Assembly (NCBI GenBank): GCA_028709305.1
Contig: JAQVXE010000001.1
Coordinates: 7,477-71,476, forward strand
From: Bacillota bacterium
Lineage (GTDB): Bacteria > Bacillota > DTU025
Reading direction: 5' to 3'
DNA: 64,000 nucleotides
Shown here piece after piece: positions 3,357 through 64,000 of the stretch. Below the pieces are notes generated by a model. That model was not told where the DNA came from, searched no databases, and saw only the letters and a list, made by a program, of their open reading frames with translations. Both the position numbers and the translations under genes were made by a program. How positions within the stretch are numbered: the stretch's first letter is position 1; each line of letters begins with the position of its first letter.

Positions 3357-3375
3357 TTCATTTGGAGGTTAGACT

Positions 3376-6980: not shown

Positions 6981-7030
6981 ATATGGCGCGCCTGGCAGGA
7001 ATCGAACCTGCGGCCCACGGATTAGAAGTA
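6981..7030 (-). repeat. Partial copy (3' half through anticodon loop) of tRNA-Arg(TCT); 50/50 nt identical to 22211-22260; candidate distal att site of an integrated element
   Basis: atatggcgcgcctggcaggaatcgaacctgcggcccacggattagaag present at both loci; identity ends exactly in the anticodon loop. Confidence 0.75.
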
Positions 7031-7079
7031 GCCTGTGTGAGTGCTTCCTCGCACCTTCCTGTGACGAATATGCCCTCTA

Positions 7080-7800: not shown

Positions 7801-7994
7801 CCGCGACACATCCGCCAAAACCCGTCCATAGCATGAACGCATCACAAAAGGCCATGCAAATGGGCATTGCGCGGCAAGCGTGCAGCGTACGGCACATATG
7901 CACGGCCCGCTATCGAATCCGAAGTACTCATGCCCACATTGGCTGCGTGCAGACACTGGCTGCTCAGCGAAGCCAAGATACTCATCGGGAATTC

Positions 7995-8399
7995 TCACTC
8001 GACTGACAGTGTGCGAAAGATATCGGCAAGTTGCTGTTTGCTCAGGCCCCCTGAAGCAACGTCGATCATTGCGACATATAGCGTTCCGTCCGGGTCGCGC
8101 GTCTCTATCGCGTTCAGCTCCAGAAAGACTAGAGCGCAAGCTAAGGCGGTTCGTTTGTTGCCGTCGACAAACGGATGGTTGTTGCAGATATGGAATGCGT
8201 AGGCTGCTGCCGCCTCGAAGATGTCTCTATGGAGGAACTCTCCTCCGAACGAGGCCTGAGGCATTGCCAGGGCCGACAGAAGAAGGTCGATGTCTCGAAT
8301 GCCGCGATGGCCACCGTATCGGTTCACTAGGTCCATGTGGACGTCGATCGCCTCATCCAGAGTCAAGAAGATTATACTGTCCATGCCAAAGCACCCCAT
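7995..8399 (-). CDS. doc: Doc/Fic-family toxin (death-on-curing)
   Basis: Fic motif HPFVDGNKRTA; size 134 aa; immediately downstream of AbrB-type antitoxin. Confidence 0.85.
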   Translation of the reverse strand: MGCFGMDSIIFLTLDEAIDVHMDLVNRYGGHRGIRDIDLLLSALAMPQASFGGEFLHRDIFEAAAAYAFHICNNHPFVDGNKRTALACALVFLELNAIETRDPDGTLYVAMIDVASGGLSKQQLADIFRTLSVE

Positions 8400-8417
8400 A
8401 AAGCCTGTAACTGCATG

Positions 8418-8645
8418 CTACTCCGCAAGTTTCCTGAGCGTGGACTCGTGTTCTGCGTTCACCTTGGCGAGCGCTGCCCCGAACAGCTCATCGTGTCCCG
8501 CGTCGCGCACAGGCGAGATGACCAGGTTCTTGCCGTCGGTGACGATCTTCAGGGGGGTGGTCATCGTTATGTCAAGCAGTTCCAGTATTGGTTTGTCGAT
8601 GATCAGCGCCGCGCTGTTTCCATGGGCGGTGAGAGTTTTGATCAT
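8418..8645 (-). CDS. Phd/MazE-like antitoxin with AbrB/SpoVT swapped-hairpin domain (start at internal ATG with RBS GGAGGGG)
   Basis: MIKTLTAHGNSAALIIDKPILELLDI... typical AbrB-fold antitoxin N-terminus; 4-19 nt upstream of doc. Confidence 0.7.
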   Translation of the reverse strand: MIKTLTAHGNSAALIIDKPILELLDITMTTPLKIVTDGKNLVISPVRDAGHDELFGAALAKVNAEHESTLRKLAE

Positions 8646-9025
8646 GGCTGCCCCTCCGGTCAGTATATTGTAATCACAATATATCACCGAACGCAGGCTG
8701 CAGCAAGCGAGCTTACGGTCACAGCGGGCCTACGGGCACGCATCGCGCATAGGCGACAGTGCAAGCCGGCCCAGAGCGAGGGCGTAGGCCGAAGCCATCA
8801 GGCCATGATCTTCAGAGTGTTCCCGGCAGTGTCCCTGCCCACGGTGATTGACAGTATGTTAAGGCGTTCTGGCTGAATTGTACGGCCTATTGGGAGGAGA
8901 ACGGAGGGAGGCCTGTCGAAGAGAGAGGCATCACATGAAAGGAGAGAGATGAAGGGCGCCGGATCGATGAGGTGCTAGCCTCTCCCCGGTAGCCGCTCCA
9001 TCTCCCATCAGCATCTTGATCGTAC

Positions 9026-9616
9026 TTGATTGCTGCGCGGATTGCGAGATCTTGCGACGAAGATGTGATTGAGTTGCTGCGTCGCGGGGTGCGGGAAGGC
9101 TTCGTAAGGTGTCCCGAGTGCGGGGGGCCCATGACGTTGAGAGGGAGCTATGGTCGGAACCTCTGGGTTGCCGAGGGTCCCGACACAGCGCAAGTCCGTA
9201 TGGTACGTGCTGAGTGCCCGCGGTGTGCACGCTCGCATTCCTTGATTCCTTCGGTGCTGACCCCACGGAGTCCCTATCCCCAGTGGATCCGAGAGAAAGC
9301 GGTGCAAGAGCACCAGAGGGGCAAACGCATGAGGGAAATATCGAGAGAGCTGGGTGTGCCGCGTACGACTCTGGGCAGGTGGATTCACGCTTTCAAAGCC
9401 AAGAGGGCAAGAATCGCGGCGGCCATGCGGGCGATTCTAGTCGCCTGCCGCCAGAAGACGGCCGAGGCGCGAGAAACGCTGGCTGAGCTTGTGGGGAGAG
9501 CGAGCCGGGCGTTGGGTTTCAAGGCCAAGTGCAGACTGGTTTCGAGTCAGACGAATGTCCTGTTGTGTTACGCGAAAAGCGAGGGCCATGTGCCCTGGAG
9601 CGTCCCATTGCTGTGA
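9026..9616 (+). CDS. IS-associated HTH/zinc-ribbon protein (CPECGG...CPRCARSH; HTH ISRELGVPRTTLGRW)
   Basis: Motif reading only; sits directly after the shared IS leader repeat and overlaps transposase ORF. Confidence 0.4.
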   Translation: MIAARIARSCDEDVIELLRRGVREGFVRCPECGGPMTLRGSYGRNLWVAEGPDTAQVRMVRAECPRCARSHSLIPSVLTPRSPYPQWIREKAVQEHQRGKRMREISRELGVPRTTLGRWIHAFKAKRARIAAAMRAILVACRQKTAEARETLAELVGRASRALGFKAKCRLVSSQTNVLLCYAKSEGHVPWSVPLL

Positions 9617-14932: not shown

Positions 14933-15646
14933 ATGAACGACACAGTCATTGCCACAACCAATGAAATAGCCGAACTTAGGGGCTTGGCTGAGCAGTATGC
15001 TGAACTCTGTATTCTCGTTGACCAACTGAAGTAAGAAAACGCTGAGCTAGCCGCCAAAGTCAAGTGGTATGGAGAGCAGTTCCGCTTGAGCCAGAAGCGG
15101 CGCTTCGGCGCTTCCAGCGAAAAGACGGATTGCGAGCAATTGCGGCTCTTCAACGAAGTTGAGGCGGAGGCTCAACCGCTTCTGGCTGAACCTACGATCG
15201 AAAAAATCACCTATCAGCGCCACAAACAAAAGGGTCGGCGCGAGGCTATCCTTTCTGACCTGCCCGTGGAGACGGTAGAATACCGCCTTCCAGAAGAGGA
15301 GCAGGTCTGTCCCTCTTGTGGCGGCCCTTTGCATGAGATGAGCACTGAAGTGCGGCGAGAGCTTAAAGTCATTCCCGCTCAGGTTAAGGTCGCAGAGCAT
15401 GTGCGCCTCGTCTATTCTTGCCGCCGGTGTGAGCAAGAAGAGATCAATACGCCTGTAGTAACAGCGCCGATGCCTGCGCCTGTATTGAAAGGGAGCCTGG
15501 CTTCACCTTCAGCCCTGGCCTACATCATGACCCCAAAATACGTTGAAGGCATGCCGCTCTATCGCCAGGAGCAGCAGTTCGCCCGTTTGGGAATAGGCCT
15601 TTCCCGACAGACGCTGGCTAACTGGATGCTCTACGGGGCCAAGAAT
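14933..15646 (+). pseudogene. IS66-family transposase TnpC N-terminal part; in-frame TAA at 15031-15033, then interrupted by IS21 insertion; short continuation at 18433-18503
   Basis: [30 protein letters not shown] leucine-zipper/Zn-finger region, CPSCGG...[29 protein letters not shown]; resumes WLTPLYERMHEHLL after IS21. Confidence 0.7.
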
Positions 15647-15654
15647 TGCATATT

Positions 15655-15835
15655 CCGGCCCAAATCGTCCACCGATTCCGGGACAATTCGTCCACCCATT
15701 CCGATTGAACTCGTCCACTGATTCCGGAGCAAACAATCCACCGTTTCCGGAGCAATTCGTCCACTGATTCCGGCTCAAATCGTCCATCGATTCCGGAGCA
15801 ATTCGTCCGGGGCGGCTGCCTCGGTTCGGAGCTGA
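15655..15835. repeat. Array of ~6 sub-terminal direct repeats (~24 nt, core TCGTCCAC.GATTCCGG) at IS21 left end; mirrored inverted at 18270-18430
   Basis: Visible iterated 'tcgtccac(c/t)gattccgg(a/g)gcaa' units; IS21 family known to carry multiple terminal transposase-binding repeats. Confidence 0.7.
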
Positions 15836-15914
15836 AGCACGCCGGCAACAATGCCACAGGATAGCCGCGTAGAGTCACCGAACTCCCGTAAGCAAGATGC
15901 TTCTAGGAGGGTGA

Positions 15915-17462
15915 TTGAGGGCTGTGGCAAACAGGAGGTTGTCGATGCGCAAGATCAAGGAGATTCTGAGGCTTTATCACGAGGTGGGGTTGAGCCGTCG
16001 CCGGATTGCCGAAAGCCTACAAGCTGCCCATAGCACTGTCGGCGATGTGATCAGGAGAGCCAACGGCGTCGGGCTCGGCTGGCCGATCCCGGACACCATG
16101 ACTTGGGACGATGTGGAGCGTTTGCTTTATCCGGGCAACACGAACAAGCCCAGGACGAGGCCTATGCCGAAGTGGGAACAGATCCACCGCGAGCTTAAGA
16201 GCAAGAAGTCCGTTACCCTGCAGCTTCTATGGTATGAGTACAAGCAGGAAAATCCGGATGGAGTCCAGTACAGCCAGTTCTGCGCCTACTATCGCGAATG
16301 GGTACGCAAGCTTGATGTTGTCATGCGGCAGACGCATCGCGCCGGAGAGAAGATGTTCGTGGACTTCGCCGGACAGACCGTACCGATACGGGATCGGACC
16401 TCGGGCGAAATCAAGGAGGCGTACGTGTACGTTGCGGTATTGGGGGCGAGCAACTATACGTATGCGGAGGCCACGATGACGCAGGATCTGAAATCATGGG
16501 TGAACTTGACCCGGAACGCCCTGGAGTTCTTCAAGGGATCGACGGAGATATGGGTACCCGATAATCTCAAGACCGGAGTGACGAACGCATGCCGCTACGA
16601 GCCGGACATAAACCCTACCTACAGCGAGATGGCCGAGCATTACGGCGCGGTGGTTATCCCGACGCGGCCCCGAAAGCCGAAGGACAAAGCGAAGGTCGAG
16701 AAGGGAGTGCAAGTGGTAGAGCAATGGATACTGGCCGCAATACGCAAGATCACCTTCTTCGACCTGCACCAGCTGAACGGCGTCATCAAGGAGAAGCTGG
16801 ACGTACTGAACAACAAACCGTTTCAGAAGATGGACGGGACGCGCAGGTCCGTGTATGAGCAGATAGATAAGCCGGCGCTCAAGCCCCTTCCGCAGACGCC
16901 CTACGTGTTCGCTAGATGGAAGAAGGCAACCGCTAACATCGACTATCACATTTCGGTGGACCACAACCTATACAGTGTTCCGTACACCCTCGTAGGCCAT
17001 GAGCTCGATGTTCGCCTAACTGGTAGCACCGTGGAGGTATTCAGCCGGGGCCAAAGGGTAGCAATCCATCAGAGGGCCATAGGTCGAGGGCAGGTCGCCA
17101 CGGAACCAAGCCACCGGCCCGTATCGCACCAAAAGCACCTCGAATGGACGCCCGAACGAATGATACGCTGGGCTGAATCGGTGGGGCCCAACACTGGCAA
17201 GCTCGTGAAGATGATACTCGAAAGAAGGCCCCACCCGGAACAGGGATACCGCTCGTGCCTGGGGATCATCAGACTGGCGAAAGCCTATTCAGCGGAGAGA
17301 CTGGAAGCGGCGGCAGCCAGGGCGCTGGCGCTGGGAGGCATCTCATACAAGAGCGTAAAGTCCATTCTCAAGAACGGGCTGGATCAGGTTCCCCTGCCCG
17401 ACCAGACGCCTCAGGCGATGCCCGCCCATACCAATGTCCGCGGACCAGGCTACTTCAACTAG
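15915..17462 (+). CDS. istA: IS21-family transposase IstA
   Basis: N-terminal HTH, rve DDE core (FVDFAGQT..., YVAVLGASNYTYAEA), length 515 aa. Confidence 0.9.
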   Translation: MRAVANRRLSMRKIKEILRLYHEVGLSRRRIAESLQAAHSTVGDVIRRANGVGLGWPIPDTMTWDDVERLLYPGNTNKPRTRPMPKWEQIHRELKSKKSVTLQLLWYEYKQENPDGVQYSQFCAYYREWVRKLDVVMRQTHRAGEKMFVDFAGQTVPIRDRTSGEIKEAYVYVAVLGASNYTYAEATMTQDLKSWVNLTRNALEFFKGSTEIWVPDNLKTGVTNACRYEPDINPTYSEMAEHYGAVVIPTRPRKPKDKAKVEKGVQVVEQWILAAIRKITFFDLHQLNGVIKEKLDVLNNKPFQKMDGTRRSVYEQIDKPALKPLPQTPYVFARWKKATANIDYHISVDHNLYSVPYTLVGHELDVRLTGSTVEVFSRGQRVAIHQRAIGRGQVATEPSHRPVSHQKHLEWTPERMIRWAESVGPNTGKLVKMILERRPHPEQGYRSCLGIIRLAKAYSAERLEAAAARALALGGISYKSVKSILKNGLDQVPLPDQTPQAMPAHTNVRGPGYFN

Positions 17463-18234
17463 GAGGCCCGATGAAATGTTGGTTGAACACACCATAACAC
17501 GGCTGAACGACATGCGCCTGGCCGGAATGAGCGAAGCCTATTCGTGGCAAAGGGAAAAGCCCAACATACATGAGTTGTCTTTCGACGAACGCTTCGGCAT
17601 GCTGGTTGACCGGGAATGGGCTTGTCGGCAGGACAGACGGCTGTCTCGCCTGCTCAAGGCGGCCAAGTTGCGTCTCCCGGCATGCGTTGAGGACATCAAC
17701 TACCGGCAACCCCGCGACCTCGACCGGAACACTATCGTTCACCTGGCTGCATGCGATTGGATCAGGAACGCTCAGAACGTCCTGATCACCGGGCCGACGG
17801 GCGTGGGCAAGACGTTCATAGCCTGTGCCCTGGCTCACTCCGCTTGCCGCCACGGATTCAGCGCGCGGTACTACAGAGTGCCGCGCCTGCTATCCGAACT
17901 AACTGTCGCCCATGGCGACGGATCGTATCCCCAGTTGCTAAGCAGACTGTCGAGGACACGCCTACTGATATTGGACGACTGGGGAACGGCGCCGCTGGGG
18001 CCCTCGGAAAGCCACGACATCCTGGAGATCGTCGACGATCGCAGCCAGCTGTCCTCCACGATCATTGCCGGCCAACTCCCGGTTGAAGACTGGCATGCAT
18101 CTATCATCGACCCGTCCGTGGCAGATGCAGTCCTTGACCGCCTTGTTCACAATTCACACAGAATACGCCTGAAAGGGGAGTCGATGAGGAAGGTAGAGCA
18201 GCGACCGCAGCGAACCATTGACCAAGGGACATGA
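17434..18234 (+). CDS. istB: IS21-family helper ATPase IstB (true start likely ~17473)
   Basis: Walker A GPTGVGKT, Walker B LLILDDWG, IstB-like length. Confidence 0.9.
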   Translation: MSADQATSTRRPDEMLVEHTITRLNDMRLAGMSEAYSWQREKPNIHELSFDERFGMLVDREWACRQDRRLSRLLKAAKLRLPACVEDINYRQPRDLDRNTIVHLAACDWIRNAQNVLITGPTGVGKTFIACALAHSACRHGFSARYYRVPRLLSELTVAHGDGSYPQLLSRLSRTRLLILDDWGTAPLGPSESHDILEIVDDRSQLSSTIIAGQLPVEDWHASIIDPSVADAVLDRLVHNSHRIRLKGESMRKVEQRPQRTIDQGT

Positions 18235-18547
18235 TCCCATACCGTGCGTCGCTTCGCTCCGACCTGGCCAGCCGGGGCCTTTCAGAACCACCGGATTCTT
18301 TGCCCCGCGGAACAGGTGGACGAATTGCCCCGGACCAGCTGGACGATTTGGATCGGAACAGGTGGACGAATTGGGCCGGAACGAGTGGACGCTTTCCTCC
18401 GGACCAGGTGGACGATTTCATCGGAATACGCAAGAACTGGCTCACACCCCTTTATGAAAGAATGCATGAGCATCTTCTAGGAGCCTGTGCGAGTAATATC
18501 TGAATCGGAGTACAGGAAAACGCAGCTACATAGCGAATTAACATAGT

Positions 18548-19036
18548 ATGAGTAAGACATACAGGCCTTACAACCCAGATCAAATGTATCTGTTGCCGCC
18601 ATCCCTCAAGGACTGGCTTCCGGAGGGACATCTGGCGTACTTCGTAAGCGATCTCGTCGATCAGCTGGACCTCTCGGCCATCGAGCAAGTCTATGAGCGA
18701 GAGGAGAGAGGCTATCCGCCTTGCCACCCGAGGATGATGGTAAAGGTCCTGCTATACGCCGAATGCGTTGGAGTTCGTTCCTCCAGGAAGATCGAAAAGC
18801 GCCTTGTAGAGGATGTAGCGTTTCGAGTTCTCGGGGCGGGCAACACGCCAGCGTTCAGAACTGTAGCCGAGTTTCGCAGCCGGCACTTGAAGGAGCTTGC
18901 AGCGCTGTTTGCACAGGTTCTGACGGTCTGTTGGAAGTCGGGACTTGTATCGCTCAAGCACGTCGCGCTTGACGGCACAAAGATCAGGGCGAACGCTTCC
19001 AAACACACCTCTGTTTGGCAAGTAGAAAGTGCATAG
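18548..19036 (+). pseudogene. IS1182-family transposase, N-terminal fragment (interrupted by second IS21)
   Basis: YNPDQMYLLPPSLKDWLPEGHLAYFV...GYPPCHPRMMVKVLLYAECVGVRSSRKIE...DGTKIRANASKH. Confidence 0.7.
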
Positions 19037-19102
19037 TTCGGCGGCCGAAATGTGCATAGGCTAACCGCCGCGCCTGGGGTTGGGTCTTCGTACCCTTCGG
19101 GG

Positions 19103-19885
19103 CTAGGCCGTCGGGTTGAGGGTCTCCCGCCCGGAGCCCATCCCGTCAGATTCTCTCGGTGCGTTTAGTTGTGAGAGAGCATTCCGTAGTCGATAACTCT
19201 CGCCGGTGAACGCCAGCACGTGTCCGTGGTGGACGAGCCTGTCGATGAGCGCGGCGGTCAACCGGTTGTCGTTGATCAACGTGTTCCACTGTCCGAATTC
19301 GAGGTTCGTGGTGATGGCCACGCTTCGACGCTCGTAACAGTTGGCTATCACCTGGAACAGAAGCTCGGCCGCGTGGCGATGCAGGGGCAAGAAGCCCAGC
19401 TCGTCCACGATGAGCAGATCGCATGACTCGAGGTCACGCGTGAAGCTTCCCAGCGTCCCCTTTGCGTTTTTCTCCAGCAGGCGATTGGCCAGATCAACCG
19501 TTTGGAAGAAGCGCACCTCCTTTCCGCTTAGGGCTGCCTTCAGTCCCAGCGCTATCACAAGATGCGTCTTGCCCGTTCCCACGCCGCCCATGCAGATCAA
19601 GGACTCCTTGGCATCAATGAAGTCCAGCTCTGTTAGGTGCTCTCTAGTGGTCTGCGGGGGCAGTACGATGTTCTCCCAGGAGAACTCCTCTAGCGTTTTC
19701 GTCTGGGGGAAGCCTGCGCGTTTCAGTCTGCGCCGGTTTCGGTTGTCTTCACGTATCTTCAGTTCCTCTGCAAAGAGGTCCGTCAGGAACTGCTCGCTGC
19801 TCTCGAGGGCAATCTGCGTGTAGATCCGGCTCACCGATCCAAGCTTAAGCGCTTTGCACTGCTCTTGGAGAAGAGCGGACTTCAT
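19103..19885 (-). CDS. istB: IS21-family IstB ATPase
   Basis: GGVGTGKTHL Walker A, LLIVDELG Walker B. Confidence 0.9.
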   Translation of the reverse strand: MKSALLQEQCKALKLGSVSRIYTQIALESSEQFLTDLFAEELKIREDNRNRRRLKRAGFPQTKTLEEFSWENIVLPPQTTREHLTELDFIDAKESLICMGGVGTGKTHLVIALGLKAALSGKEVRFFQTVDLANRLLEKNAKGTLGSFTRDLESCDLLIVDELGFLPLHRHAAELLFQVIANCYERRSVAITTNLEFGQWNTLINDNRLTAALIDRLVHHGHVLAFTGESYRLRNALSQLNAPRESDGMGSGRETLNPTA

Positions 19886-21399
19886 CTCGTCGCCACCCCC
19901 TCCAGCCGTGTCGGCAGCAGCCGGTCGTAGAGAGTGGAATCCGGATCGTAAGCCGCCACTTCCAGCGGCGTGTAGCCCTCGGCTATGGGTTCGGGAGTCC
20001 GGTTCTCCGGGCGGAGCGAATAGAGCTTGAGCTCGAGGTTCGCCGGATTGGCCCGCCTGTCGGCGGGCAGCGCCTCAAGCGCTTCTGCGATCTGATCAAT
20101 GCTATAGGTCTTCAGCGCGTCTCGCAGGGCTCGGACTCGAATCGCCCGGTCTGGCGCATCGGCTTCCTGCAGATACGCTCGGACCGCTTCAGGCAGATGG
20201 CGAAACATGGCTGAGTGCACAGCCGCTCGCGGACGATGCGAATAGATCTCAAACAGGGCCGGCCAGTCAATTGGTTGTTCTTTGAGCATGTAGCTCCTCG
20301 GCAGAGTCGTGAGAAGCTCGCCTTCCCGATTCCGTACTTCGATTCGATCCCAATACACGCTGAGCAGAACCCTTTGCCGCGGTTTGCCTTGCGGCACAGC
20401 ATAGGTCGCCTTCTCGAAACGGAACTGCGCGTAGTTGTTCAGTACTGCATGATCGAGCCGCATGGCTTCGAACGGAACGTTTGGCAGCGGCAATAGCGCC
20501 GATCGCTCCTCCTCCCAAAGGTCGCTGATCTTCCTGTCGGCCTTGTAGTGAACGCGGTCCATGTCCTTCACAGCCTCGGTCGCCAGCAGCTCGCCCAGCT
20601 CCTCGAAGCTGTTGAGGGGATGAATAGGGCATAGCCATTGCCTGCGCGTGTATCCCACCTTGTTCTCAACGTTGCCCTTTTCGTTGCCTCTTGCCGGCCC
20701 GCAGAAGTCCGCTTCGAAGCGGTGGTGAAGCTGAAACCGCATGAACGCCTCGGTTAGCACTCGCTCCTCTCCTTCCCCGATGCTTGCCACCGCGGCCGAC
20801 ATGTTATCCAACACCAATCTCCGGGGCACGCCTCCTGCCTGCTCAAACAGCAGCTTTAGCCCTTCCAAGAAGCATTCCGTGTTCTCGGACGGCATCGGGA
20901 CTGCGAAACCTGCATTTGACCACGGGAACGAGAGGACAAGCGACTTGATCTCGATGATCTTGCCATCTCGCACGCAGCGGACTGTTCCGAAATCCGCCTG
21001 GGCCTCCCCAATCGGGTGTTCAAGTTCAACGTATGCACTGCTATCGCCCTTGAACAGCTCGCCGCGCCGCTTCTGAACGTACTCCCTTACTGTACGTTCC
21101 CCGCCCTTAAAGCCATGGGCGTCTCGAAGCTCTCGATAAATGGCTGCGGCATTACGGCGATCCTTTCTGGGCAGTAATCGATCTTCAAGCAGCCAAGTGT
21201 CAACGATCTCCGCTACAGGATCCATAACTGGCCTCCGCTTGGCTCGGGCGCTGGGCATAGGCTCGTTCCAGTCATCCCGCTGAGCGTATTTTGCTGCCGT
21301 CCGCCAACACACGCCGGTCCGTTTAGCAATTGCGCTGATCGATGCCTCTTCGCTTTCATACGCATGCTTGATATACTCTTGTACAGGCATAGCTATCAC
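19882..21399 (-). CDS. istA: IS21-family transposase IstA
   Basis: HTH N-terminus + rve DDE core; overlaps istB by 4 nt. Confidence 0.9.
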   Translation of the reverse strand: MIAMPVQEYIKHAYESEEASISAIAKRTGVCWRTAAKYAQRDDWNEPMPSARAKRRPVMDPVAEIVDTWLLEDRLLPRKDRRNAAAIYRELRDAHGFKGGERTVREYVQKRRGELFKGDSSAYVELEHPIGEAQADFGTVRCVRDGKIIEIKSLVLSFPWSNAGFAVPMPSENTECFLEGLKLLFEQAGGVPRRLVLDNMSAAVASIGEGEERVLTEAFMRFQLHHRFEADFCGPARGNEKGNVENKVGYTRRQWLCPIHPLNSFEELGELLATEAVKDMDRVHYKADRKISDLWEEERSALLPLPNVPFEAMRLDHAVLNNYAQFRFEKATYAVPQGKPRQRVLLSVYWDRIEVRNREGELLTTLPRSYMLKEQPIDWPALFEIYSHRPRAAVHSAMFRHLPEAVRAYLQEADAPDRAIRVRALRDALKTYSIDQIAEALEALPADRRANPANLELKLYSLRPENRTPEPIAEGYTPLEVAAYDPDSTLYDRLLPTRLEGVATR

Positions 21400-22213: not shown

Positions 22214-22288
22214 GGCGCGCCTGGCAGGAATCGAACCTGCGGCCCACGGATTAGAAGTCCGTTGCTCTATCCCCTGAGCTACAGGCGC
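22214..22288 (-). tRNA. tRNA-Arg (anticodon UCU), CCA encoded
   Basis: Manual cloverleaf: GCGCCUG acceptor, D-arm UAGCUCAGGGGAUAGAGC, anticodon loop CUUCUAA, T-arm GCAGGUUCGAUUCCUGC, 3' CAGGCGC-G-CCA. Confidence 0.85.
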
Positions 22289-37184: not shown

Positions 37185-37264
37185 GGTGGATGTAGCTCAG
37201 CTGGCTAGAGCATCAGATTGTGGCTCTGAGGGTCGTGGGTTCAAGTCCCATCATCCACCCCATT
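37185..37264 (+). tRNA. tRNA-His (anticodon GUG) with extra 5' G(-1), CCA encoded
   Basis: Manual fold: G-1, GUGGAUG acceptor, anticodon loop UUGUGGC, T-arm GUGGGUUCAAGUCCCAU. Confidence 0.9.
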
Positions 37265-37354: not shown

Positions 37355-37431
37355 GCGCCCGTAGCTCAGCTGGACAGAGCGATGGACTTCGAATCCATAG
37401 GCCGCAGGTTCGAGCCCTGCCGGGCGTGCCA
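37355..37431 (+). tRNA. tRNA-Arg (anticodon UCG), CCA encoded
   Basis: Manual fold: GCGCCCG acceptor (G1:U72), D-arm GCUCAGCUGGACAGAGC, anticodon loop CUUCGAA, T-arm GCAGGUUCGAGCCCUGC. Confidence 0.8.
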
Positions 37432-57362: not shown

Positions 57363-57962
57363 ATGCCGGCGAAGCGATCGTCCTCAGGCAGCGCTCTCTC
57401 ATGGATCTTTGCAGTGATCCTGATAAGCGTGGCCGCGGTCGGGGTTGGCTGGCTCATCGGGCAGCAAGTGCTGGGCTGGATTAATCCGAACCGAAGCTCA
57501 GTATCTGAGCAGGGCTCAGAAGATACTGGTGGTTACAGCTATTATCCCTGGAGCAGCTCGAATGGATCAAGCAGTGAGACGCAGCAGTCGCCGACAACAA
57601 CTACTCCCGACATTAATCTGCCCGTAAGCACTCTGCCCGGAAGTAGCACGGCCGAGGCCCCAACGTACGGAGTGGACAGTCCGTCTATGTCGAGTTCTTC
57701 CACTGATGGAGTTGGCACGACACAGGGTGTAGTCTCCGGTTCCGCTGCCAAGCAGTTTTACCGCGTGCGAGTGGGATCTTTCGGCACCAGAGAGGCCGCA
57801 ATGGCTGCCGCCAGCGAGCTGGAAGTCCAGGGCTACCCGATCTTCGTTACCGGTGGCGGACCATGGTCTGTTCAGGTTGGAGCATTCGCACTCAGAGAGA
57901 ATGCGATAGCACTAGGCGATACCCTTGCTAATCAGGGTTATGACGTTACCATAGTTGAATAG
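57363..57962 (+). CDS. SPOR-domain (peptidoglycan-binding) membrane protein with Ser/Thr-rich linker
   Basis: N-terminal TM, low-complexity linker, C-terminal SPOR fold FYRVRVGSFGTREAAMAAASELEVQGYPIFV...WSVQVGAF. Confidence 0.75.
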   Translation: MPAKRSSSGSALSWIFAVILISVAAVGVGWLIGQQVLGWINPNRSSVSEQGSEDTGGYSYYPWSSSNGSSSETQQSPTTTTPDINLPVSTLPGSSTAEAPTYGVDSPSMSSSSTDGVGTTQGVVSGSAAKQFYRVRVGSFGTREAAMAAASELEVQGYPIFVTGGGPWSVQVGAFALRENAIALGDTLANQGYDVTIVE

Positions 57963-58187
57963 GGGTAAGGGGTGATCGAGCAGGGCCTTGTTCTGCATCG
58001 TGTCTGGATTAGCGTATTTTCGGCCCGGGTGTAGCAGGTGAGTGGCGAGTTCAACCCTGGATATGCCAATGCTCTCCAGGACGTGCAGGAACGTCCCCGG
58101 CTGTCGTGGCACCAGCGCATTCTGATATAGCAGTCGAAGCGGATCGATAAGCAACGGCGATACGGGCCCGGCCGAGGCCCGATAGGC

Positions 58188-58637
58188 ATGGGCCGGGCCA
58201 ATTGTCTTATGGACGCATGTTCTTACATTGCGTTTAAGTGGAGGGAACGAGGTTTGAAACTTGCAGACATCCGCGATTTGTTAGGGGCGGAGGTTCTTGT
58301 GGGAGAGGACAAGCTCTCCACGGTTGAGATTGACATGGCGTGTGGCTCTGACCTTATCAGCGATGTGCTTGCTTTTTGTCACGACAATACTCTCTTGTGC
58401 ACAGGGCTGGTAACCGCGCAAATTGTTCGGACAGCTGAGATTGCCGGGTTGTCCACCATAATATTTGTGCGAGGGAAGAGGCCCGAGGAAAGCGTGATAG
58501 AGATGGGGAGAGCCGCCGGGATTCCCATGCTGGCAACCGATCTGCCTCTGTTTGAAACTTGCGGTCTGCTCTTTAGGGCGGGCGTCGGCGGGATTCGTCT
58601 TTGTGCCGATGGGAGCAGCCGATCAGGAGAGATCTGA
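58188..58637 (+). CDS. DRTGG-domain protein (start likely internal, ~58251 TTG)
   Basis: DRTGG-like core ...TGLVTAQIVRTAEIAGLSTIIFVRGKRP...; first gene of hydrogenase-like sensor cluster. Confidence 0.65.
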   Translation: MGRANCLMDACSYIAFKWRERGLKLADIRDLLGAEVLVGEDKLSTVEIDMACGSDLISDVLAFCHDNTLLCTGLVTAQIVRTAEIAGLSTIIFVRGKRPEESVIEMGRAAGIPMLATDLPLFETCGLLFRAGVGGIRLCADGSSRSGEI

Positions 58638-59140
58638 CAGTGTACCGCAAGAACGATAATGGACAAGCCATGGATCCTGCGGAAGTTACTCCATGCGGGG
58701 CGGCTCGTCCTTCCTCCGAACCCGTGCTTGAGATGAGCTTCGAAGTCGGCCACTACGATTTCGCTGCAGCCGGCGAGGCGGCCAGCAAGATCAAGCAGGT
58801 TCTCAGGAAACTGGGGATGGCGCCTGACGTAGTGCGTCGCGCAGCGGTGGCAGCGTACGAAGCTGAAATGAACCTGGTTATCCATTCTGTGGGAGGAAGC
58901 ATCCTTCTCCATGTCGACACGGAGAAGGTGACACTCGTTTCTTGCGACGAAGGTCCGGGAATGCCAGACATCAGCCTGGCAATGAAGGAAGGCTACTCAA
59001 CTGCGCCGGATGAGATAAGGGAAATGGGATTCGGGGCTGGAATGGGGCTTCCTAACATGAAGAGGTGTTCCGATTCGTTTTCCATAGAATCCGAGGTGGG
59101 ACGCGGAACGACTGTAACCGCATCAATCAGGATAGCCTAA
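58601..59140 (+). CDS. GHKL-type ATPase, anti-sigma-factor/Ser-Thr kinase-like (HATPase_c); start uncertain (~58662-58733)
   Basis: N/G1/G2 boxes: E..NLVIH, DEGPGM, GFGAGMGL. Confidence 0.7.
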   Translation: MCRWEQPIRRDLTVYRKNDNGQAMDPAEVTPCGAARPSSEPVLEMSFEVGHYDFAAAGEAASKIKQVLRKLGMAPDVVRRAAVAAYEAEMNLVIHSVGGSILLHVDTEKVTLVSCDEGPGMPDISLAMKEGYSTAPDEIREMGFGAGMGLPNMKRCSDSFSIESEVGRGTTVTASIRIA

Positions 59141-59203
59141 CCTAATGAAGCAAGCAGCTAGAACCCTGGCCAGTTCGCGTTCCATGGGGAGGTTGAGCTG
59201 TGC

Positions 59204-60538
59204 ATGGAGAGCCGGTTTCACTCCGTGAAACTCCTCGAGGAAAAGTGTAAAGGCTGTACCAACTGCATAAAGCGCTGCCCGACTGAGGCCATCAGAGTGC
59301 GAGAAGGTAAGGCTGTAATCAACGCTGCCAGGTGCATTGATTGTGGAGAGTGTGTTAGGACCTGCGAGAACCACGCCAAAACCATTATTGCCAATTCTCT
59401 TGAGGATCTTCGAGAATATGAGTATACAATTGCCTTGCCTGCGCCTGCCCTCTACTCGCAATTGGAGAGGGCGTCAGGACCGGATGAGATCGTGTGGGCT
59501 CTCCAAGAGATAGGCTTTGACGAGGTTTGCGACGTGTCGTTCGGTGCTGATATCATCACCGAGTGCACACGCAGGCACCTCATGTCTTTTCCGAAGCTCC
59601 GGCCGGTGATTTCCGGAGCTTGCCCTGCTGTAGTCCGCCTGATCCAGGTCAGATACCCAAACCTCCTTTCCCACGTGGCCAAAGTAGAAAGCCCGATGTA
59701 TGCAGCGGCTCGGGTAGCCCGGGCTGAAGTATCAAGCAGGCTCGGCATTGCCCACGATCGTATAGGGGTCTTTTTCATCACGCCCTGCGCGGCCAAGGTC
59801 ACTGCTGTTATCGCCCCTTTGGGCTCAGAGAAGTCATACGTAGATGGCGCGATTTCCATATCTGACATATACGGAGAGCTAATAACCAGAGTCGGGCAGC
59901 ATGGTGCTGCTCGACCAGTATACAGAGGGTCAAGCTTCGGTTTTGCATGGGCAAACAGCAGCGGAGAACTGAAGGCTTTGGGATTGCAGAACGTGTTGGC
60001 TGTGGATGGAATACACAATGTCCTTGATCTGCTTGAAGAGGTAGACAACGGCCGATTGGCCGGGGTCGACTACATCGAGGCTCTCGCGTGTCCTGCAGGA
60101 TGTGTTGGAGGTCCGGCAACTGTGGAGAACCCCTTTGTGGCCCGGGCCCGCATGATAGAGATCTCAAAGGCCGTTGAAGCCGGTTCGGATTATGCTCTTG
60201 CAGAGGCAAAGCAGGTGGTAGACAAGTACGGGGAAGAGTTCTTTGCCCTCCAAGGCGAGCTTGCTGCAGTTGCCGGCCTGGCGATCGATCCTCGCCTTGA
60301 GGTTGCCATAGCCAAGATGAGTGAACTGGAACGAGTTTTGGCCCGACTTCCGGGCTTGGATTGCGGGGCCTGCGGTTCGCCTACGTGCCGCGCACACGCG
60401 GAGGATGTTGTGTGCGGTCATGCCTCTGAGGTTGACTGCGTGTTCAAGTTGCGGGAGGCCATGGAAGAGGTTGCGGAGGAGCTCCTCAAGTTGGCTAAGA
60501 CGGACCTTCCGTCGCTGCAAAGGAGGAACGACAAATGA
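59204..60538 (+). CDS. Sensory [FeFe]-hydrogenase-like protein (HydS/HfsB-type): 2x[4Fe-4S] ferredoxin domain + H-cluster domain + C-terminal extra Cys4 motif; no PAS domain
   Basis: CKGCTNCIKRCP and CIDCGECVRTC ferredoxin motifs; H-domain L1 ISGACPAVV (proton-relay Cys replaced by Ala), L2 FFITPCAAKVT, L3 EALACPAGCVGGP; C-terminal CGACGSPTCRAH...C...C. Confidence 0.75.
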   Translation: MESRFHSVKLLEEKCKGCTNCIKRCPTEAIRVREGKAVINAARCIDCGECVRTCENHAKTIIANSLEDLREYEYTIALPAPALYSQLERASGPDEIVWALQEIGFDEVCDVSFGADIITECTRRHLMSFPKLRPVISGACPAVVRLIQVRYPNLLSHVAKVESPMYAAARVARAEVSSRLGIAHDRIGVFFITPCAAKVTAVIAPLGSEKSYVDGAISISDIYGELITRVGQHGAARPVYRGSSFGFAWANSSGELKALGLQNVLAVDGIHNVLDLLEEVDNGRLAGVDYIEALACPAGCVGGPATVENPFVARARMIEISKAVEAGSDYALAEAKQVVDKYGEEFFALQGELAAVAGLAIDPRLEVAIAKMSELERVLARLPGLDCGACGSPTCRAHAEDVVCGHASEVDCVFKLREAMEEVAEELLKLAKTDLPSLQRRNDK

Positions 60539-60879
60539 CTGTGCAGGAAATCGCCGACATTTTGGGCTTGAGATGCGTCGCAGGAGGCAAATCATTGGAG
60601 CGCGAGGTTTCATCGGGTTATGTGTCGGACTTGCTCAGCGATGTGATGGGCAACGCAAGGGATAGTGGCATATGGGTGACCTCACAGGTTCATCAGAATG
60701 TTGTGGCAGTTGCGCTGCTTCTTGACCTTGCAGCGGTAGTGATCGCAGGCGGGCTGGAGATGAACGACGATGCGCTTGCCAAGGCAAAAGCGGAGGGAGT
60801 GCCGGTTCTGTCAACCAAGATGTCGGCGTTCGAAGCGGTGGGCAGACTGTACGAGTTGGGTGTAAGGGGAGACGTCTAG
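60535..60879 (+). CDS. DRTGG-domain protein (second copy)
   Basis: Small 114 aa protein with DRTGG-like fold pattern (VTSQVHQNVVAVALLLDLAAVVIAGG); 4-nt overlap with hydrogenase-like gene. Confidence 0.65.
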   Translation: MTVQEIADILGLRCVAGGKSLEREVSSGYVSDLLSDVMGNARDSGIWVTSQVHQNVVAVALLLDLAAVVIAGGLEMNDDALAKAKAEGVPVLSTKMSAFEAVGRLYELGVRGDV

Positions 60880-60881
60880 GC

Positions 60882-61625
60882 ATGGTCCGGGCTTTCGCCG
60901 CCGACCTGCACGTCCACACTTACCTGTCGCCGTGCGCGGCTAGGGAGATGAGCCCGCAGGCAATAGTCGGACGGTGTCTCGAATTGGGCCTTGACATCAT
61001 TGCTCCTGCTGACCATAACTCAGCTGCAAACGTGGAGGCTATGGCACTTGCTGCCAGCGGCACAGGGCTTGTGGTTATCTGCGGCATGGAAGTTTGCACA
61101 AAGGAAGAAGTCCATGTAATCACCCTTCTTCCAAACGTTCGTGCCATGGCAGAATGGGAATCGAAGGTAGCGAGATCCAGGGCGCCTGGGGTGAATGCCC
61201 CTTCGATTTTCGGAGATCAATGGGCGTTTTCGCCGCAGAGCGGCGACATTGTTCAGGAGACGTCTCTCTTGGCTGCCCCGACATTGCTGTCTCTAGAAGA
61301 GATTGTGCAGGGCGTTGGAGCCCTGGGAGGCATCTGCGTGCCGTGCCACGTTGACAGGCGCGCGTTCAGCATCCTGGCACAGCTGGGATTCGTTCCTGAG
61401 CATTTGGACATTCCTGCGCTGGAAGTATCCAAGGTCATCTCCCAAGCTGAGGCTAGACGGGCGTTCCCCGCGACATGCGGCCGCACTCTGGTCTCTTTTT
61501 CTGATGCCCATTCCCTGAACGAGATTGGGTTGGGCTGTTCTCTTTTTTGGCTCGAAGAGCCGACATTCGATGAGATCGTGCTTGCTCTTCGCGGAGAGGC
61601 GGGAAGATACGTTGAGGTGGAGTAG
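60882..61625 (+). CDS. PHP-domain phosphoesterase
   Basis: PHP metal-binding motifs DLHVHTYLSPCA, PADHNS, later His/Asp residues. Confidence 0.8.
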   Translation: MVRAFAADLHVHTYLSPCAAREMSPQAIVGRCLELGLDIIAPADHNSAANVEAMALAASGTGLVVICGMEVCTKEEVHVITLLPNVRAMAEWESKVARSRAPGVNAPSIFGDQWAFSPQSGDIVQETSLLAAPTLLSLEEIVQGVGALGGICVPCHVDRRAFSILAQLGFVPEHLDIPALEVSKVISQAEARRAFPATCGRTLVSFSDAHSLNEIGLGCSLFWLEEPTFDEIVLALRGEAGRYVEVE

Positions 61626-61685
61626 CAGTTTCTATCTGTGGTAAGTCCATCTGCGGGGTAGACTGTACAGAAATGGCGGTGCGGC

Positions 61686-62228
61686 ATGAGGGAGCTTTCA
61701 ATGCACATACTCGACATAGCACAAAACTCCATAGCTGCTGAGGCGCGGCTTATCCAGATCGACGTAGTCGAGGACGCAGCTAATGAGATGATGACCATTA
61801 GCGTAATTGATGACGGGAAAGGAATGTCTGAGGAAGTTGTGCAGATGGTGGCCGATCCCTTTGTCACGTCTCGAACGACGCGCCAGGTCGGGCTGGGGAT
61901 TCCGCTCCTGACTGCGGCGGCCGAAAGATGCGGCGGAGGGGTGGAAATTATCAGCAAGCAGAATGTGGGCACTACGGTAACCGCACAGTTCCAGCTGTCG
62001 CATATAGATCGAGCGCCCCTGGGAAACATGGCAGAAACCCTCCTTGTGTTGGTGGCCTGTAACCCCGACCTGGATTTTGTGTATAATCATGTTCGAGGAG
62101 AAAATTCATTTAGATTCGATACCCGAGAGATTCGGTCGGAGTTGGGCAGTATTCCTCTATCACATCCGGAGGTTGTGACGTTCATTCGCGACTTCGTGGC
62201 AGAGGGTGAAAGGAGGCTGGGGGCGTGA
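61686..62228 (+). CDS. Second GHKL-type ATPase (HATPase_c) protein
   Basis: DDGKGM (G1), GLGIPL (G2) boxes. Confidence 0.65.
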   Translation: MRELSMHILDIAQNSIAAEARLIQIDVVEDAANEMMTISVIDDGKGMSEEVVQMVADPFVTSRTTRQVGLGIPLLTAAAERCGGGVEIISKQNVGTTVTAQFQLSHIDRAPLGNMAETLLVLVACNPDLDFVYNHVRGENSFRFDTREIRSELGSIPLSHPEVVTFIRDFVAEGERRLGA

Positions 62229-62713
62229 GGCAATTCGGTATTGTCCAGCGGGTTCGCGGCAAGTTTGCCGAGGTCCTGGTGAGTCGTCCAGCTGCTTGCA
62301 AGAGCTGTGGAGCATGCCAACTGATGGATAATCGTCCACACACGGTGACTGTGAGAAACGACGCCGGTGCGGACGTCGGCGACACAGTAGCCCTGGAGCT
62401 GCCTGGGAAGGATTTGGTTCGCGCAGTCCTTCTTGCATATGGAGTGCCATTGGTCATGTTCCTGGCCGGGCTGGGCGTGGGGGCGCCCGTGGCTCGGAGC
62501 CTCGGATTGGCGGTCAACCCCTCCATTGCATCAGCCATAGGGGGAGTCGCTTTTCTTTCTGCCGGCTACTACGGAGTGCACCTATACGACCGTTCTCTTG
62601 GAGCGGAAGCCTTTGCTTCTGTTGCTGTAGCTGTTGTGGATGCGGATAACCTTGAGTGCGCATCTAATGTGGCAGGAGTCGCGCGGGCCCGTGAGGCGAG
62701 GGAGACCGAATGA
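62225..62713 (+). CDS. RseC/MucC-family small membrane protein (N-terminal Cys motif CKSCGAC + 2 TM)
   Basis: Motif and topology match SoxR-reducing/RseC family; overlaps flanking genes by 4 nt (operon). Confidence 0.6.
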   Translation: MRQFGIVQRVRGKFAEVLVSRPAACKSCGACQLMDNRPHTVTVRNDAGADVGDTVALELPGKDLVRAVLLAYGVPLVMFLAGLGVGAPVARSLGLAVNPSIASAIGGVAFLSAGYYGVHLYDRSLGAEAFASVAVAVVDADNLECASNVAGVARAREARETE

Positions 62714-63378
62714 AGCAGGATAAGATACCAGATGTAGTAGTAAGGAGGCTTCCACTGTACCTTAGGGCGGTGGAGGATTTCTACCGCAAGGACCAGGCAA
62801 TAGTCTCCTCCAGTCAGCTGGGAGAGTGGACAGGCTTTACTCCGGCGCAGGTCAGGAAGGATCTCGCGTTGTTTGGAGAGTTTGGAAAACAAGGCATCGG
62901 TTACGATGCGAGGTTCTTGCATAACAAGCTGAGGGAGATTCTTGGGTTGACCAGAGATGTTAGTGTGGGCCTTGTTGGCCTTGGAAATCTGGGCCGCGCC
63001 TTGTTGCACCACAATGTCCGCGCCCGCATGGGTACTCCAGGGGTTGAGGGCGATCCAAAGCACTGGGTTCCAGAAACCTTGCGCATTGTCGCAGCCTTTG
63101 ACGTCGACCCCGAAAAAGTGGGCGTCACGTACGCGCAAGTTCCCGTCTATCACGTAGACCAGCTTTTGGGCAAGTCTGCTGAGCTTGGTCTTGAAATCAT
63201 GGTGCTTGCGGTGCCCCCCGACAGCGCTGAGGCAGTTGCGTACGAATGCGTGAAGGCGGGGATCAAAGCTATTCTGAATTTCGCCCCCGTAAATCTTGTG
63301 GTGCCTGACGATGTCAAGGTATATTCGGCAGACCTTACGTTGGAACTGCAAAGCCTTGCGTTTTATACCACCCATTGA
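62710..63378 (+). CDS. rex: Redox-sensing transcriptional repressor Rex
   Basis: N-terminal wHTH (VVRRLPLYLRAVE...SSQLGEWTGFTPAQVRKDL), Rossmann NADH site VGLVGLGNLGRAL. Confidence 0.9.
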   Translation: MKQDKIPDVVVRRLPLYLRAVEDFYRKDQAIVSSSQLGEWTGFTPAQVRKDLALFGEFGKQGIGYDARFLHNKLREILGLTRDVSVGLVGLGNLGRALLHHNVRARMGTPGVEGDPKHWVPETLRIVAAFDVDPEKVGVTYAQVPVYHVDQLLGKSAELGLEIMVLAVPPDSAEAVAYECVKAGIKAILNFAPVNLVVPDDVKVYSADLTLELQSLAFYTTH

Positions 63379-63411
63379 GCTAATTCACCTGGTGGCAGAG
63401 GAGGTCTAGAA

Positions 63412-64000
63412 GTTGTCGACGCGAAAAAAGCAAGCACTGATTCTGGTAATTGCTCTGGCAGCCGTTTGGATTGGAGTATCCGTAATAGCGGGGCAGGAGG
63501 ATTCGGATTACTGTGGATCTTGCCACTCTATGTTGCCATACCATGAATCCTGGAGCCAGAGCAACCATGCGAGCGTTGAGTGTTCGGAATGCCATATTGA
63601 ACCCGGTATTTCAGGATGGATCAAAGCCAGGTTAGATCTGAATCGCATGAAAAAGGCAGAGGCATCCGGGGTGACAGCTCAACCCGACATTGAGGTAGGG
63701 GACGATTTCTGCCTCAAGTGCCACGGAAAGGCTGCGAACATAACGGATACCGAGGCAATGACGATACCTCATTTCCTCCATGGCGAGGTGGGGCTTGACT
63801 GTGCATCATGCCACGGTGGCGAGATTCACGGAAAACACGGTACAACCCCCACGGGCATGACCCATGCCACTTGCATTGAATGTCACGAAGAGATTATTAC
63901 GGATTTGGAGACATGTACGAAGTGTCATAAAACCGATTCGATCATTGAAACTGATGTGATGAGGATTCCTCATCTGCTCCATGGCGACATGGGATTGTCG
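63412..64000 (+). CDS. Multiheme c-type cytochrome (membrane-anchored; at least 6 CxxCH motifs), 3'-partial at window edge
   Basis: TTG start after RBS gaggagg; N-terminal TM; haem sites CGSCH, CSECH, CLKCH, CASCH, CIECH, CTKCH. Confidence 0.7.

Follow-up and report, generated by a model that had tools for sequence, protein, structure and literature searches.

TamHydS from Thermoanaerobacter mathranii was the first member of the M2e or group D class of putative sensory [FeFe] hydrogenases to be characterised (PMC8163306, PMC6984386). Proteins of group D combine two N-terminal [4Fe-4S] motifs, the H-domain and a C-terminal Cx2Cx4Cx16C motif, and they have no PAS domain (PMC8163306). In TamHydS, C299 is not conserved (A137) and M497 is replaced by Leu, and the replacement of M353 by Ser or Thr is a conserved property of the group (PMC8163306, PMC6984386). 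A proton path through E252, E289, S249 and D265 is exclusive to group D, and its residues are not conserved in group C (PMC10407848). The activity of TamHydS is very low, its proton relay is lost, its affinity for H2 is high and its Hred state is stabilised (PMC8163306, PMC6984386); it catalyses H2 turnover at a low rate and has a normal N-terminal two-cluster electron path (PMC8163306). The class was described and characterised between 2019 and 2026, gene context is not a topic of the 2026 TamHydS paper, and signal transduction by a HydS without PAS is a stated open question in the group D literature (PMC8163306). The hfs operon, for its part, comprises the PAS-bearing HfsB, the serine phosphatase HfsC and the ferredoxin-linked hydrogenase HfsD (PMC11837493). 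Here, we analysed a cluster of nine genes that includes a HydS-like Fe-S protein, at the end of a 64,000-nucleotide (nt) stretch of DNA (the window) from an uncultured anaerobic Bacillota lineage (contig JAQVXE010000001.1). We found that this region is probably the sensor/regulator half of a conserved hydrogen- and redox-balancing island.

Open reading frames (ORFs) were taken from a six-frame listing, and domains were assigned by Pfam and NCBIfam scans of the window proteins. A preliminary description, made from the sequence alone, had listed nine co-directional genes with particular domains, and this is borne out by both databases: all nine lie on the plus strand, are closely spaced and carry the expected domains. 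Lengths below are in amino acids (aa).

58254..58637, plus strand: DRTGG-a, a DRTGG-domain protein (127 aa from TTG 58254; Pfam DRTGG, E 4.8e-07)
58640..59140, plus strand: GHKL1, a SpoIIAB/RsbW-like serine-kinase-type ATPase (166 aa; Pfam HATPase_c and HATPase_c_2)
59204..60538, plus strand: HydS, a putative sensory [FeFe] hydrogenase of group D/M2e (444 aa; Fer4x2, Fe_hyd_lg_C and FeS, PF04060)
60535..60879, plus strand: DRTGG-b (114 aa; Pfam DRTGG, E 5.2e-08, and a weak Hpr_kinase_N match)
60882..61625, plus strand: PHP-family metal-dependent phosphoesterase (247 aa; Pfam PHP and PHP_C)
61686..62228, plus strand: GHKL2, a stand-alone histidine-kinase-type ATP-binding protein (180 aa; Pfam HATPase_c, E 1.3e-13)
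62225..62713, plus strand: RseC/MucC-family small membrane protein (162 aa; Pfam RseC_MucC, PF04246, E 2.6e-26)
62710..63378, plus strand: Rex, the NADH/NAD+-sensing transcriptional repressor (222 aa; NCBIfam NF003995; Pfam Put_DNA-bind_N and CoA_binding)
63413..64000, plus strand: membrane-anchored multihaem cytochrome c with a NapC/NrfH-like N-terminus (TTG start; cut by the window end)

In an alignment to solved hydrogenases, C140, C195, C296 and C300 of HydS align with the H-cluster ligands of those enzymes. SGACP stands in place of TSCCP, so that Ala replaces the relay Cys and the ligand Cys is retained; the L2 Cys is kept in TPCAAK, and both L3 Cys are kept in EALACPAGC. This alignment confirms the earlier observation that all four H-cluster cysteines are retained and the relay Cys is lost. 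The extra C-terminal Cys4 motif reported with it is also present, as CGACGSPTC-x16-C (C387-x2-C390-x4-C395-x16-C412; PF04060, E 2.9e-11). The N-terminus carries CxxCxxCxxxC twice, corresponding to two [4Fe-4S] motifs, and the protein matches Fe_hyd_lg_C in Pfam with an E of 1e-32. With TSCCP not intact and the C-terminal Cys4 motif present, the proposal that HydS is of a sensory type rather than a standard catalytic [FeFe] hydrogenase is supported.

The comparison with TamHydS extends to individual residues. HydS has A139 at the position of C299 of CpI, T193 at M353 and L294 at M497, and its S252, E255, D268 and E292 correspond, with identical spacing, to S249, E252, D265 and E289 of TamHydS, when the two proteins are mapped through the fixed offset from A137 of TamHydS to A139. 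E255, D268 and E292 are invariant across an alignment of 15 family members. No Pfam match to a PAS domain was found across the 444 aa of HydS. In a database search at E <= 1e-20, the relatives numbered at least 7865, and the best 120 of these homologues all have the same domain set, none of them with PAS. Because the domain set without PAS, the residues A139, T193 and L294, the group D residues S252, E255, D268 and E292, and the Cx2Cx4Cx16C motif all match published features, the Fe-S protein of the window is, by its sequence, a further member of the described group D (M2e) putative sensory class. HydS had been singled out as lacking PAS, unlike described HydS proteins; the absence stands, whereas the contrast does not, given that this is the published group D/M2e class.

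The gene neighbourhood of group D HydS was compared across genomes. A pattern scan with one genome per species gave at least 600 matching stretches, and 599 of those listed encode a HydS relative. We compared the best 80 of these (at least 600) loci with 10 kb flanks, and the counts out of 59 given here refer to the loci with enough flank. Genes were tallied from phmmer matches on all ORFs, using as queries the window proteins and Pfam-verified reference NuoE, NuoF and HydA (those of the Thermoanaerobacterium butyriciformans locus, L046, were confirmed by Pfam). The order DRTGG-GHKL1-HydS-DRTGG-PHP occurs in 52 of the 59 loci, fusions of DRTGG with GHKL1 included. GHKL2 is additionally present in 41 of the 59, with NuoE and NuoF downstream in 40 of those 41. 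The five-gene core together with GHKL2 and HydABC, without Rex or RseC, makes up 35 of the 59 loci, and a few show partial forms. Most HydABC-type loci read PHP-NuoE-GHKL2-[2Fe-2S]-NuoF-HydA, and some read PHP-GHKL2-[2Fe-2S]-NuoE-NuoF-HydA; elsewhere, GHKL2 is found only alongside hydCBA, right after PHP or else with NuoE on one side and the [2Fe-2S] gene on the other. DRTGG-a lies upstream of HydS in 69 loci and DRTGG-b after HydS in 71. In Halanaerobium hydrogeniformans, the published operon lists HydA, NuoF, a ferredoxin-like protein, a histidine kinase, NuoE, PHP, an Fe-S hydrogenase and an anti-sigma Ser/Thr kinase (PMC4237134).

Since 52 of 59 loci share the core order, the doubled DRTGG/GHKL arrangement with PHP is the standard neighbourhood of group D HydS, not a novelty. 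The suggestion that the cluster represents an undescribed variant therefore fails on both counts, as the class is published (PMC8163306, PMC6984386, PMC10407848) and the layout occurs in these 52 loci and is listed for Halanaerobium (PMC4237134). Its proposed kinship with hfs-type clusters is not upheld either: the cluster has no PAS, no homologue of the serine phosphatase HfsC and no HfsD-type hydrogenase.

The module is directly preceded by a SPOR-domain gene (57363-57962). The same holds in many distant Clostridia (among them L034, L046 and L028), where the SPOR gene is often preceded by folC and valS, and the chromosomal position next to the SPOR gene appears to be old and conserved. One candidate fusion of DRTGG-b with PHP, in L004, was rejected: the two matches lie in different reading frames, and the long ORF is PHP only according to Pfam.

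What distinguishes the window begins after PHP. In the canonical locus, the HydABC string follows directly after PHP, and the gap between PHP and NuoE often holds a Rex box, whereas in the window PHP is followed by GHKL2 and then by RseC and Rex. This succession of GHKL2, RseC, Rex and cytochrome, in place of hydrogenase genes, was seen only in the window lineage (L001-L004 and L083-L086). The preliminary description let the operon end in Rex and the cytochrome. However, contig L001, which is 99.94 % identical to the window, continues past the cytochrome with genes for a NUDIX protein, NfnA- and NfnB-like proteins and Fhs (formate-tetrahydrofolate ligase), and in relatives HydCBA and Rnf genes follow. 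These further relatives were reached through the HydS protein (L085) or the Fhs gene (L087, L088 and L092, with Fhs identities of 96 %, 91 % and 87 %, respectively). In these, Fhs is followed by genes for a thioredoxin-like [2Fe-2S] protein, NuoE, NuoF and HydA, with L085 ending within NuoF; RnfC and RnfD come after HydA in L087, L088 and L092. In L088, the entire string from SPOR to RnfD lies on one contig, and the cytochrome is absent. Compared with the canonical locus, the hydrogenase genes of this lineage are displaced by about 8 kb (they lie about 7-9 kb downstream of rex in L085, L087, L088 and L092).

HydA, NuoF and NuoE were looked for throughout the 64 kb of the window; apart from the HydS gene itself, none was found, nor was a second Fe_hyd_lg_C gene. 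Because L001 aligns over its final 560 nt, at 88 %, with the part of L087 leading into the [2Fe-2S] gene, it appears to stop where the hydrogenase genes would begin. The order in L028 is GHKL2-RseC-[2Fe-2S]-HydC-HydB-HydA-Rex, downstream of the same valS-folC-SPOR synteny as in the window. Since L028 thus has hydCBA after RseC, and since the relatives carry hydCBA after Fhs, the layout of the window is best read, on this synteny, as a rearranged canonical locus and not as a hydrogenase-less operon terminating in Rex. Its only distinctive trait is the block RseC-Rex-cytochrome-NUDIX-NfnAB-Fhs between the sensor module and hydCBA, which encodes the hydrogenase that the module most likely serves.

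Several details of this block were noted in passing. In L001, the stretch with the NUDIX, NfnA/NfnB-like and Fhs genes lies at 15029-20670; the first of these encodes a 451-aa protein with the NUDIX domain at its C-terminus only, and its N-terminal 320 aa have no Pfam match. The interval between fhs and the [2Fe-2S] gene is about 1.2 kb longer in L087 (6390-7540) than in L001 and contains a 201-aa ORF on the minus strand without a Pfam match. In many more distant contigs, rex lies about 2 kb upstream of fhs. Finally, L123 (4587-6800) keeps DRTGG-a, GHKL1, RseC, Rex and the cytochrome, followed by Fhs and then Rnf genes, and HydS, DRTGG-b, PHP and GHKL2 are absent, which suggests modular decay of the sensor module.

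Rex of the window scores 220.7 bits against NF003995 (cut-off 126) and consists of a winged-helix N-terminus and a Rossmann NAD(H) domain. Over the matched span, it exceeds the NCBIfam models by about 15 residues, its residues 1-221 aligning with model positions 1-206; the extra length appears to be inserted around RARMGTPGVEGDPKHWVPE, within the NAD(H)-binding domain. Operators were scanned for as TTGTGAAN4TTCACAA with up to two mismatches, or with at least 11 of 14 informative positions. Such a scan had been suggested for the regions upstream of DRTGG-a and of the cytochrome gene; no operator was found upstream of 58188 or of 63413. In the relatives, predicted sites lie in front of hydC (TTGTGAAAAACAGCACAA and TTGTGAATGTCTTCACAA): a perfect one, TTGTGAATGTCTTCACAA, immediately upstream of hydC in L085, and one matching at 12 of 14 positions at the same place in L087 and L088. 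To put these sites in perspective, the overall rate of Rex boxes that match 12 or more of the 14 informative positions is 0.054 per kb across the other loci. Around NuoE starts, the rate is 1.61 per kb, a 30-fold enrichment (27 matches in 62 segments of 270 nt, at 18 loci), and upstream of DRTGG-a it is 0.38 per kb, a 7-fold enrichment. The rex gene itself is found in a minority of the loci compared; it lies upstream in L017, L036, L056 and L067, divergent in L022 and L048, and downstream in L028. In L036 and L067, it stands immediately upstream of a DRTGG-GHKL1 fusion gene and has a perfect Rex box in front of it.

In Caldicellulosiruptor, experiments have established that Rex controls [FeFe] hydrogenase genes (PMC6391272), and the same is predicted in Thermoanaerobacterium (PMC6391272, PMC5886521). 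Because the operator in the relatives sits before hydC, the Rex target supported here would be the bifurcating hydrogenase hydCBA, at times together with the sensor module, and not the cytochrome. The idea of Rex-controlled electron-transfer genes at this locus therefore survives as a link between Rex and the system, and is not supported for the cytochrome, which has no operator near it and varies or is absent in relatives. The full-length cytochrome of L001 has 241 aa, nine CXXCH motifs and an N-terminal anchor. Its score of 42 bits against TIGR03153 (cut-off 134) does not reach the NrfH/NapC family level, and the resemblance to NapC/NrfH is limited to the N-terminus. A cytochrome follows Rex in L001-L004, L083-L086, L116 and L123 and is between 174 and 584 aa long.

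RseC matches PF04246 with 92.5 bits (cut-off 24.4), and an N-terminal CKSCGAC (CxxCxxC) and two hydrophobic stretches were read from its sequence. It adjoins GHKL2 only in the window lineage, L009 and L028. Given that the literature ties RseC to Rnf/Rsx systems (PMC9124969, PMC11729352) and that Rnf genes are part of the island in relatives, RseC is more plausibly an Rnf-related component than a part of H2 sensing.

We then considered the DRTGG, GHKL and PHP proteins as a candidate signal relay. The only relatives of GHKL1 in the Protein Data Bank (PDB) are SpoIIAB anti-sigma F factors (E 2e-06), and its score of 46 bits against TIGR01925 (spIIAB) is below the 135-bit cut-off; its N-box, DxGxG and GxGxGL motifs are conserved across 77 homologues. 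GHKL2 has histidine kinase catalytic domains as PDB relatives, with conserved catalytic motifs and no DHp/His domain. The metal-ligand motifs of PHP (HxH, DHN, E, H and SDAH) are conserved across 72 homologues, and in the PDB it weakly resembles a putative phosphoesterase and a 5'-3' exoribonuclease of the RNase AM type. An SDL(I/L)SDV motif is conserved in both of the DRTGG paralogues, with SDLL invariant in DRTGG-b, and DRTGG domains otherwise occur, according to NCBIfam matches, in enzymes of metabolism, for instance phosphate acetyltransferase and CBS-pyrophosphatase. DRTGG-a and GHKL1 form one 269-aa polypeptide in Tepidanaerobacter sp. GT38 (L036:9166-9975) and in a metagenome-assembled genome of Thermosediminibacteraceae (L067:9152-9961), and this fusion is independent evidence that the two proteins work together. 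As such, the earlier impression that the neighbours of HydS resemble a kinase/phosphatase relay is supported, with SpoIIAB as the only solved relative of GHKL1.

On the computed domains, signature residues, synteny, gene fusion, Rex operator positions and downstream genes, we infer a mechanism for H2 sensing in vivo, for the phosphorylation chemistry and for the output of the system. HydS would bind H2 at its H-cluster and, without a fast proton relay, would turn it over slowly, as was shown for TamHydS. Its redox state may then be passed to the C-terminal [4Fe-4S] cluster and alter how HydS engages the DRTGG proteins and the SpoIIAB-like kinase. The kinase would phosphorylate a DRTGG protein, which the PHP enzyme would reset, so that a kinase/phosphoesterase cycle acting on the DRTGG proteins most likely depends on the redox state of HydS. 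The state of this relay would set the expression or the activity of HydABC; as its output, one may think of a regulator encoded at another site or of the enzyme HydABC. Rex would provide another input, the NADH/NAD+ ratio, through the predicted operator before hydC, and RseC would most likely group with the Rnf genes of the island. We put forward only tentatively, as a possible but doubtful extension, that the DRTGG, GHKL and PHP proteins constitute an unrecognised partner-switching relay that links the redox state of the H-cluster to the bifurcating hydrogenase, to its expression or its activity, and that this relay is wired here with Rex and RseC to serve HydABC, NfnAB, Rnf and the Wood-Ljungdahl pathway.

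A number of observations weigh against the sensor/regulator reading and the relay proposed with it. DRTGG is not known to be a phospho-acceptor domain. A literature search for DRTGG, hydrogenase and PHP returned no paper combining them, and one for DRTGG and hydrogenase returned nothing relevant. The weak solved relatives of PHP have nucleotides or RNA ends, and not phosphoproteins, as substrates, and neither a DNA-binding protein nor a sigma factor was found in the conserved module or as a conserved neighbour of it. The Rex operator scan of the window and L001 gave one match only, inside valS and at chance level. The hydCBA genes were found in relatives only (87-96 % identical in Fhs or 66 % in HydS), not in the window's own genome, and 11 of the 59 loci have the five-gene core only, with no adjacent HydABC. 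In addition, the low-rate H2 turnover of TamHydS is compatible with a catalytic or electron-transfer role (PMC8163306).

The last of these points leads to a different view of HydS, as a slow hydrogenase or electron-transfer partner of HydABC, with the GHKL, DRTGG and PHP proteins acting on the enzyme through nucleotide-dependent assembly, activation or post-translational control instead of relaying a signal to transcription. The two-cluster path and H2 turnover of TamHydS (PMC8163306) fit this view, as do the position of GHKL2 inside the hydCBA string in most genomes, the lack of a transcription factor in the conserved module, the resemblance of PHP to nucleotide/RNA phosphoesterases and the presence of DRTGG in metabolic enzymes. 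We nevertheless regard it as unlikely, since the very low activity of TamHydS, its lost relay, its high H2 affinity and its stabilised Hred (PMC8163306, PMC6984386) do not suit an enzyme of this kind, the same 11 loci keep the five-gene module without adjacent HydABC, and GHKL1 is closest to a protein kinase/anti-sigma factor. Much less probable still is a self-contained nine-gene operon, that is, an undescribed PAS-less hfs/HydS variant in which an H2 sensor and partner switching act through Rex on the cytochrome and other electron-transfer genes. Although its genes are co-directional and closely spaced, GHKL1 is SpoIIAB-like, and the Rex-cytochrome pair (34 nt apart) recurs in the contigs named above, a HydS without PAS is published group D (PMC8163306), its core layout is the common one (52 of 59 loci), and the PAS, HfsC and HfsD that define hfs are absent (PMC11837493). 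Moreover, the gene string runs on into NUDIX, NfnAB, Fhs, HydCBA and Rnf, L088 dispenses with the cytochrome yet keeps everything else, and it is hydC in the relatives, rather than the cluster or the cytochrome, that has a Rex box upstream.

It is possible, if less likely than not, that RseC, Rex and the cytochrome are functionally unrelated to the HydS module and that a rearrangement placed this redox block where it is, with RseC serving Rnf, Rex acting globally and the cytochrome being respiratory. The order GHKL2-RseC-[2Fe-2S]-HydCBA-Rex in L028, behind the same valS-folC-SPOR genes, would be explained in this way, as would the upstream, divergent or downstream position of Rex in other lineages, the loss of HydS, DRTGG-b, PHP and GHKL2 from L123 (which keeps DRTGG-a, GHKL1, RseC and Rex), the variable length of the cytochrome (174 to 584 aa) and its absence from L088, and the tie of RseC to Rnf/Rsx (PMC9124969, PMC11729352) together with the Rnf genes of the island. 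Against a complete separation, the 4-nt overlaps of GHKL2 with RseC and of RseC with Rex suggest translational coupling, at least seven independent contexts have Rex beside a group D locus, and Rex boxes are strongly enriched at these loci.

Altogether, neither the sensor protein nor its core neighbourhood departs from what is usual for group D, and they do not constitute a new class; the original observation is confirmed, and the interpretation first given to it is partly supported. The value of the locus is comparative. Because of the natural fusion, the conserved catalytic motifs and the common SDLxSDV motif, the adjacent DRTGG proteins, SpoIIAB-like kinase and PHP are indicated as the transducer for a HydS without PAS, and the predicted Rex operators at hydC point to a second, independent input. 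With an H2 sensor, Rex, RseC, NfnAB, Fhs, HydABC and Rnf in one island, the lineage offers a compact example of how anaerobes may coordinate their ferredoxin, NADH, NADPH and H2 pools. It is represented by metagenome-assembled genomes, and some of the related contigs bear the label of fermentation or bioreactor metagenomes.

The finer layout of the cluster was examined as well. The longest ORF of DRTGG-a spans 58188-58637; its true start is likely TTG 58254, because a GGAGGG ribosome-binding site lies upstream and the identical start is annotated in L001 and L083. GHKL1 likely starts at GTG 58640, behind AGGAGAG, with alternative starts at 58670 and 58733. The genes had been described as co-directional with 4-nt overlaps; the direction holds for all of them, whereas the overlaps are confined to three of eight junctions (HydS/DRTGG-b, GHKL2/RseC and RseC/Rex). 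The remaining five junctions are gaps of 2 to 63 nt, that between Rex and the cytochrome measuring 34 nt. A search of the intergenic gaps for inverted repeats found only one hairpin, at 58165-58199, and no operator-like palindrome. This GC-rich repeat (GGCCCGGCCGAGGCC / GGCATGGGCCGGGCC; arms of 15 nt, loop of 5 nt) sits in the gap of about 290 nt between the SPOR gene and DRTGG-a, a gap that measures merely 56-117 nt in the relatives L084 and L085. A scan of L001 (8000-21335) for sigma-70 promoters and intrinsic terminators gave nothing convincing around the cluster, and terminator-like sites in this region are rarer than in shuffles.

Elsewhere in the window, a group II intron catalytic domain (Rfam RF00029) was found at 7642-7794 on the plus strand, with 46.1 bits against a gathering score of 40. 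The roughly 6 kb around it (3356-9529) have no ORF of at least 200 aa on either strand, only short ORFs spread over several frames, and no tandem repeats; this region may be a degraded intron or mobile element. Three tRNA genes complete the list:

22216-22288, minus strand: tRNA gene
37186-37259, plus strand: tRNA gene
37355-37428, plus strand: tRNA gene

How, then, does the locus compare with the systems described so far? HydS of the window shares with TamHydS the domain order, the Ala at C299 and the Leu at M497. The hydroxyl-bearing residue at M353 is Thr here and Ser in TamHydS, E122 and K126 of TamHydS correspond to R124 and S128, and, unlike TamHydS, the window HydS has no AraC-type regulator nearby. 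It is about 44-47 % identical to homologues from Thermoanaerobacteraceae/Thermoanaerobacterium (L046 and L051). At the level of the locus, T. butyriciformans (L046) and Halanaerobium (Halsa_1862-1871; PMC4237134) have the same order and orientation of DRTGG, SpoIIAB-like kinase, HydS, DRTGG and PHP, plus a second HATPase_c protein, and in several lineages with the canonical locus the SPOR gene lies immediately upstream, as it does in the window. The group C proteins (TmHydS, Ruminococcus albus HydS and HfsB) have in common with HydS the loss of the relay Cys and the extra C-terminal four-Cys cluster (PMC11837493, PMC10055695). They show low turnover, and their proposed role is H2 sensing that controls other hydrogenases (PMC11837493, PMC10055695). 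In contrast to the window cluster, group C has a C-terminal PAS domain, the serine phosphatase HfsC and the ferredoxin-linked HfsD/HydA2.

With the partner-switching modules SpoIIAB/SpoIIAA/SpoIIE and RsbW/RsbV/RsbU, the locus shares a SpoIIAB-like GHKL protein beside small single-domain proteins and a phosphoesterase, and it could follow their logic of a kinase, a substrate/antagonist and a phosphatase. Unlike those modules, it has DRTGG in place of STAS, PHP in place of PP2C, and no sigma factor nearby. Rex has the standard architecture known from the Rex regulons of Clostridia and Thermoanaerobacterales (PMC6391272, PMC5886521), and, as in those regulons, operators of the TTGTGAAN4TTCACAA or TTGTTAAN4TTAACAA type precede hydC at related loci. 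Unlike in those regulons, the rex gene of the window, with no operator detectable within the window, lies inside the island and overlaps rseC, to which it is probably translationally coupled.

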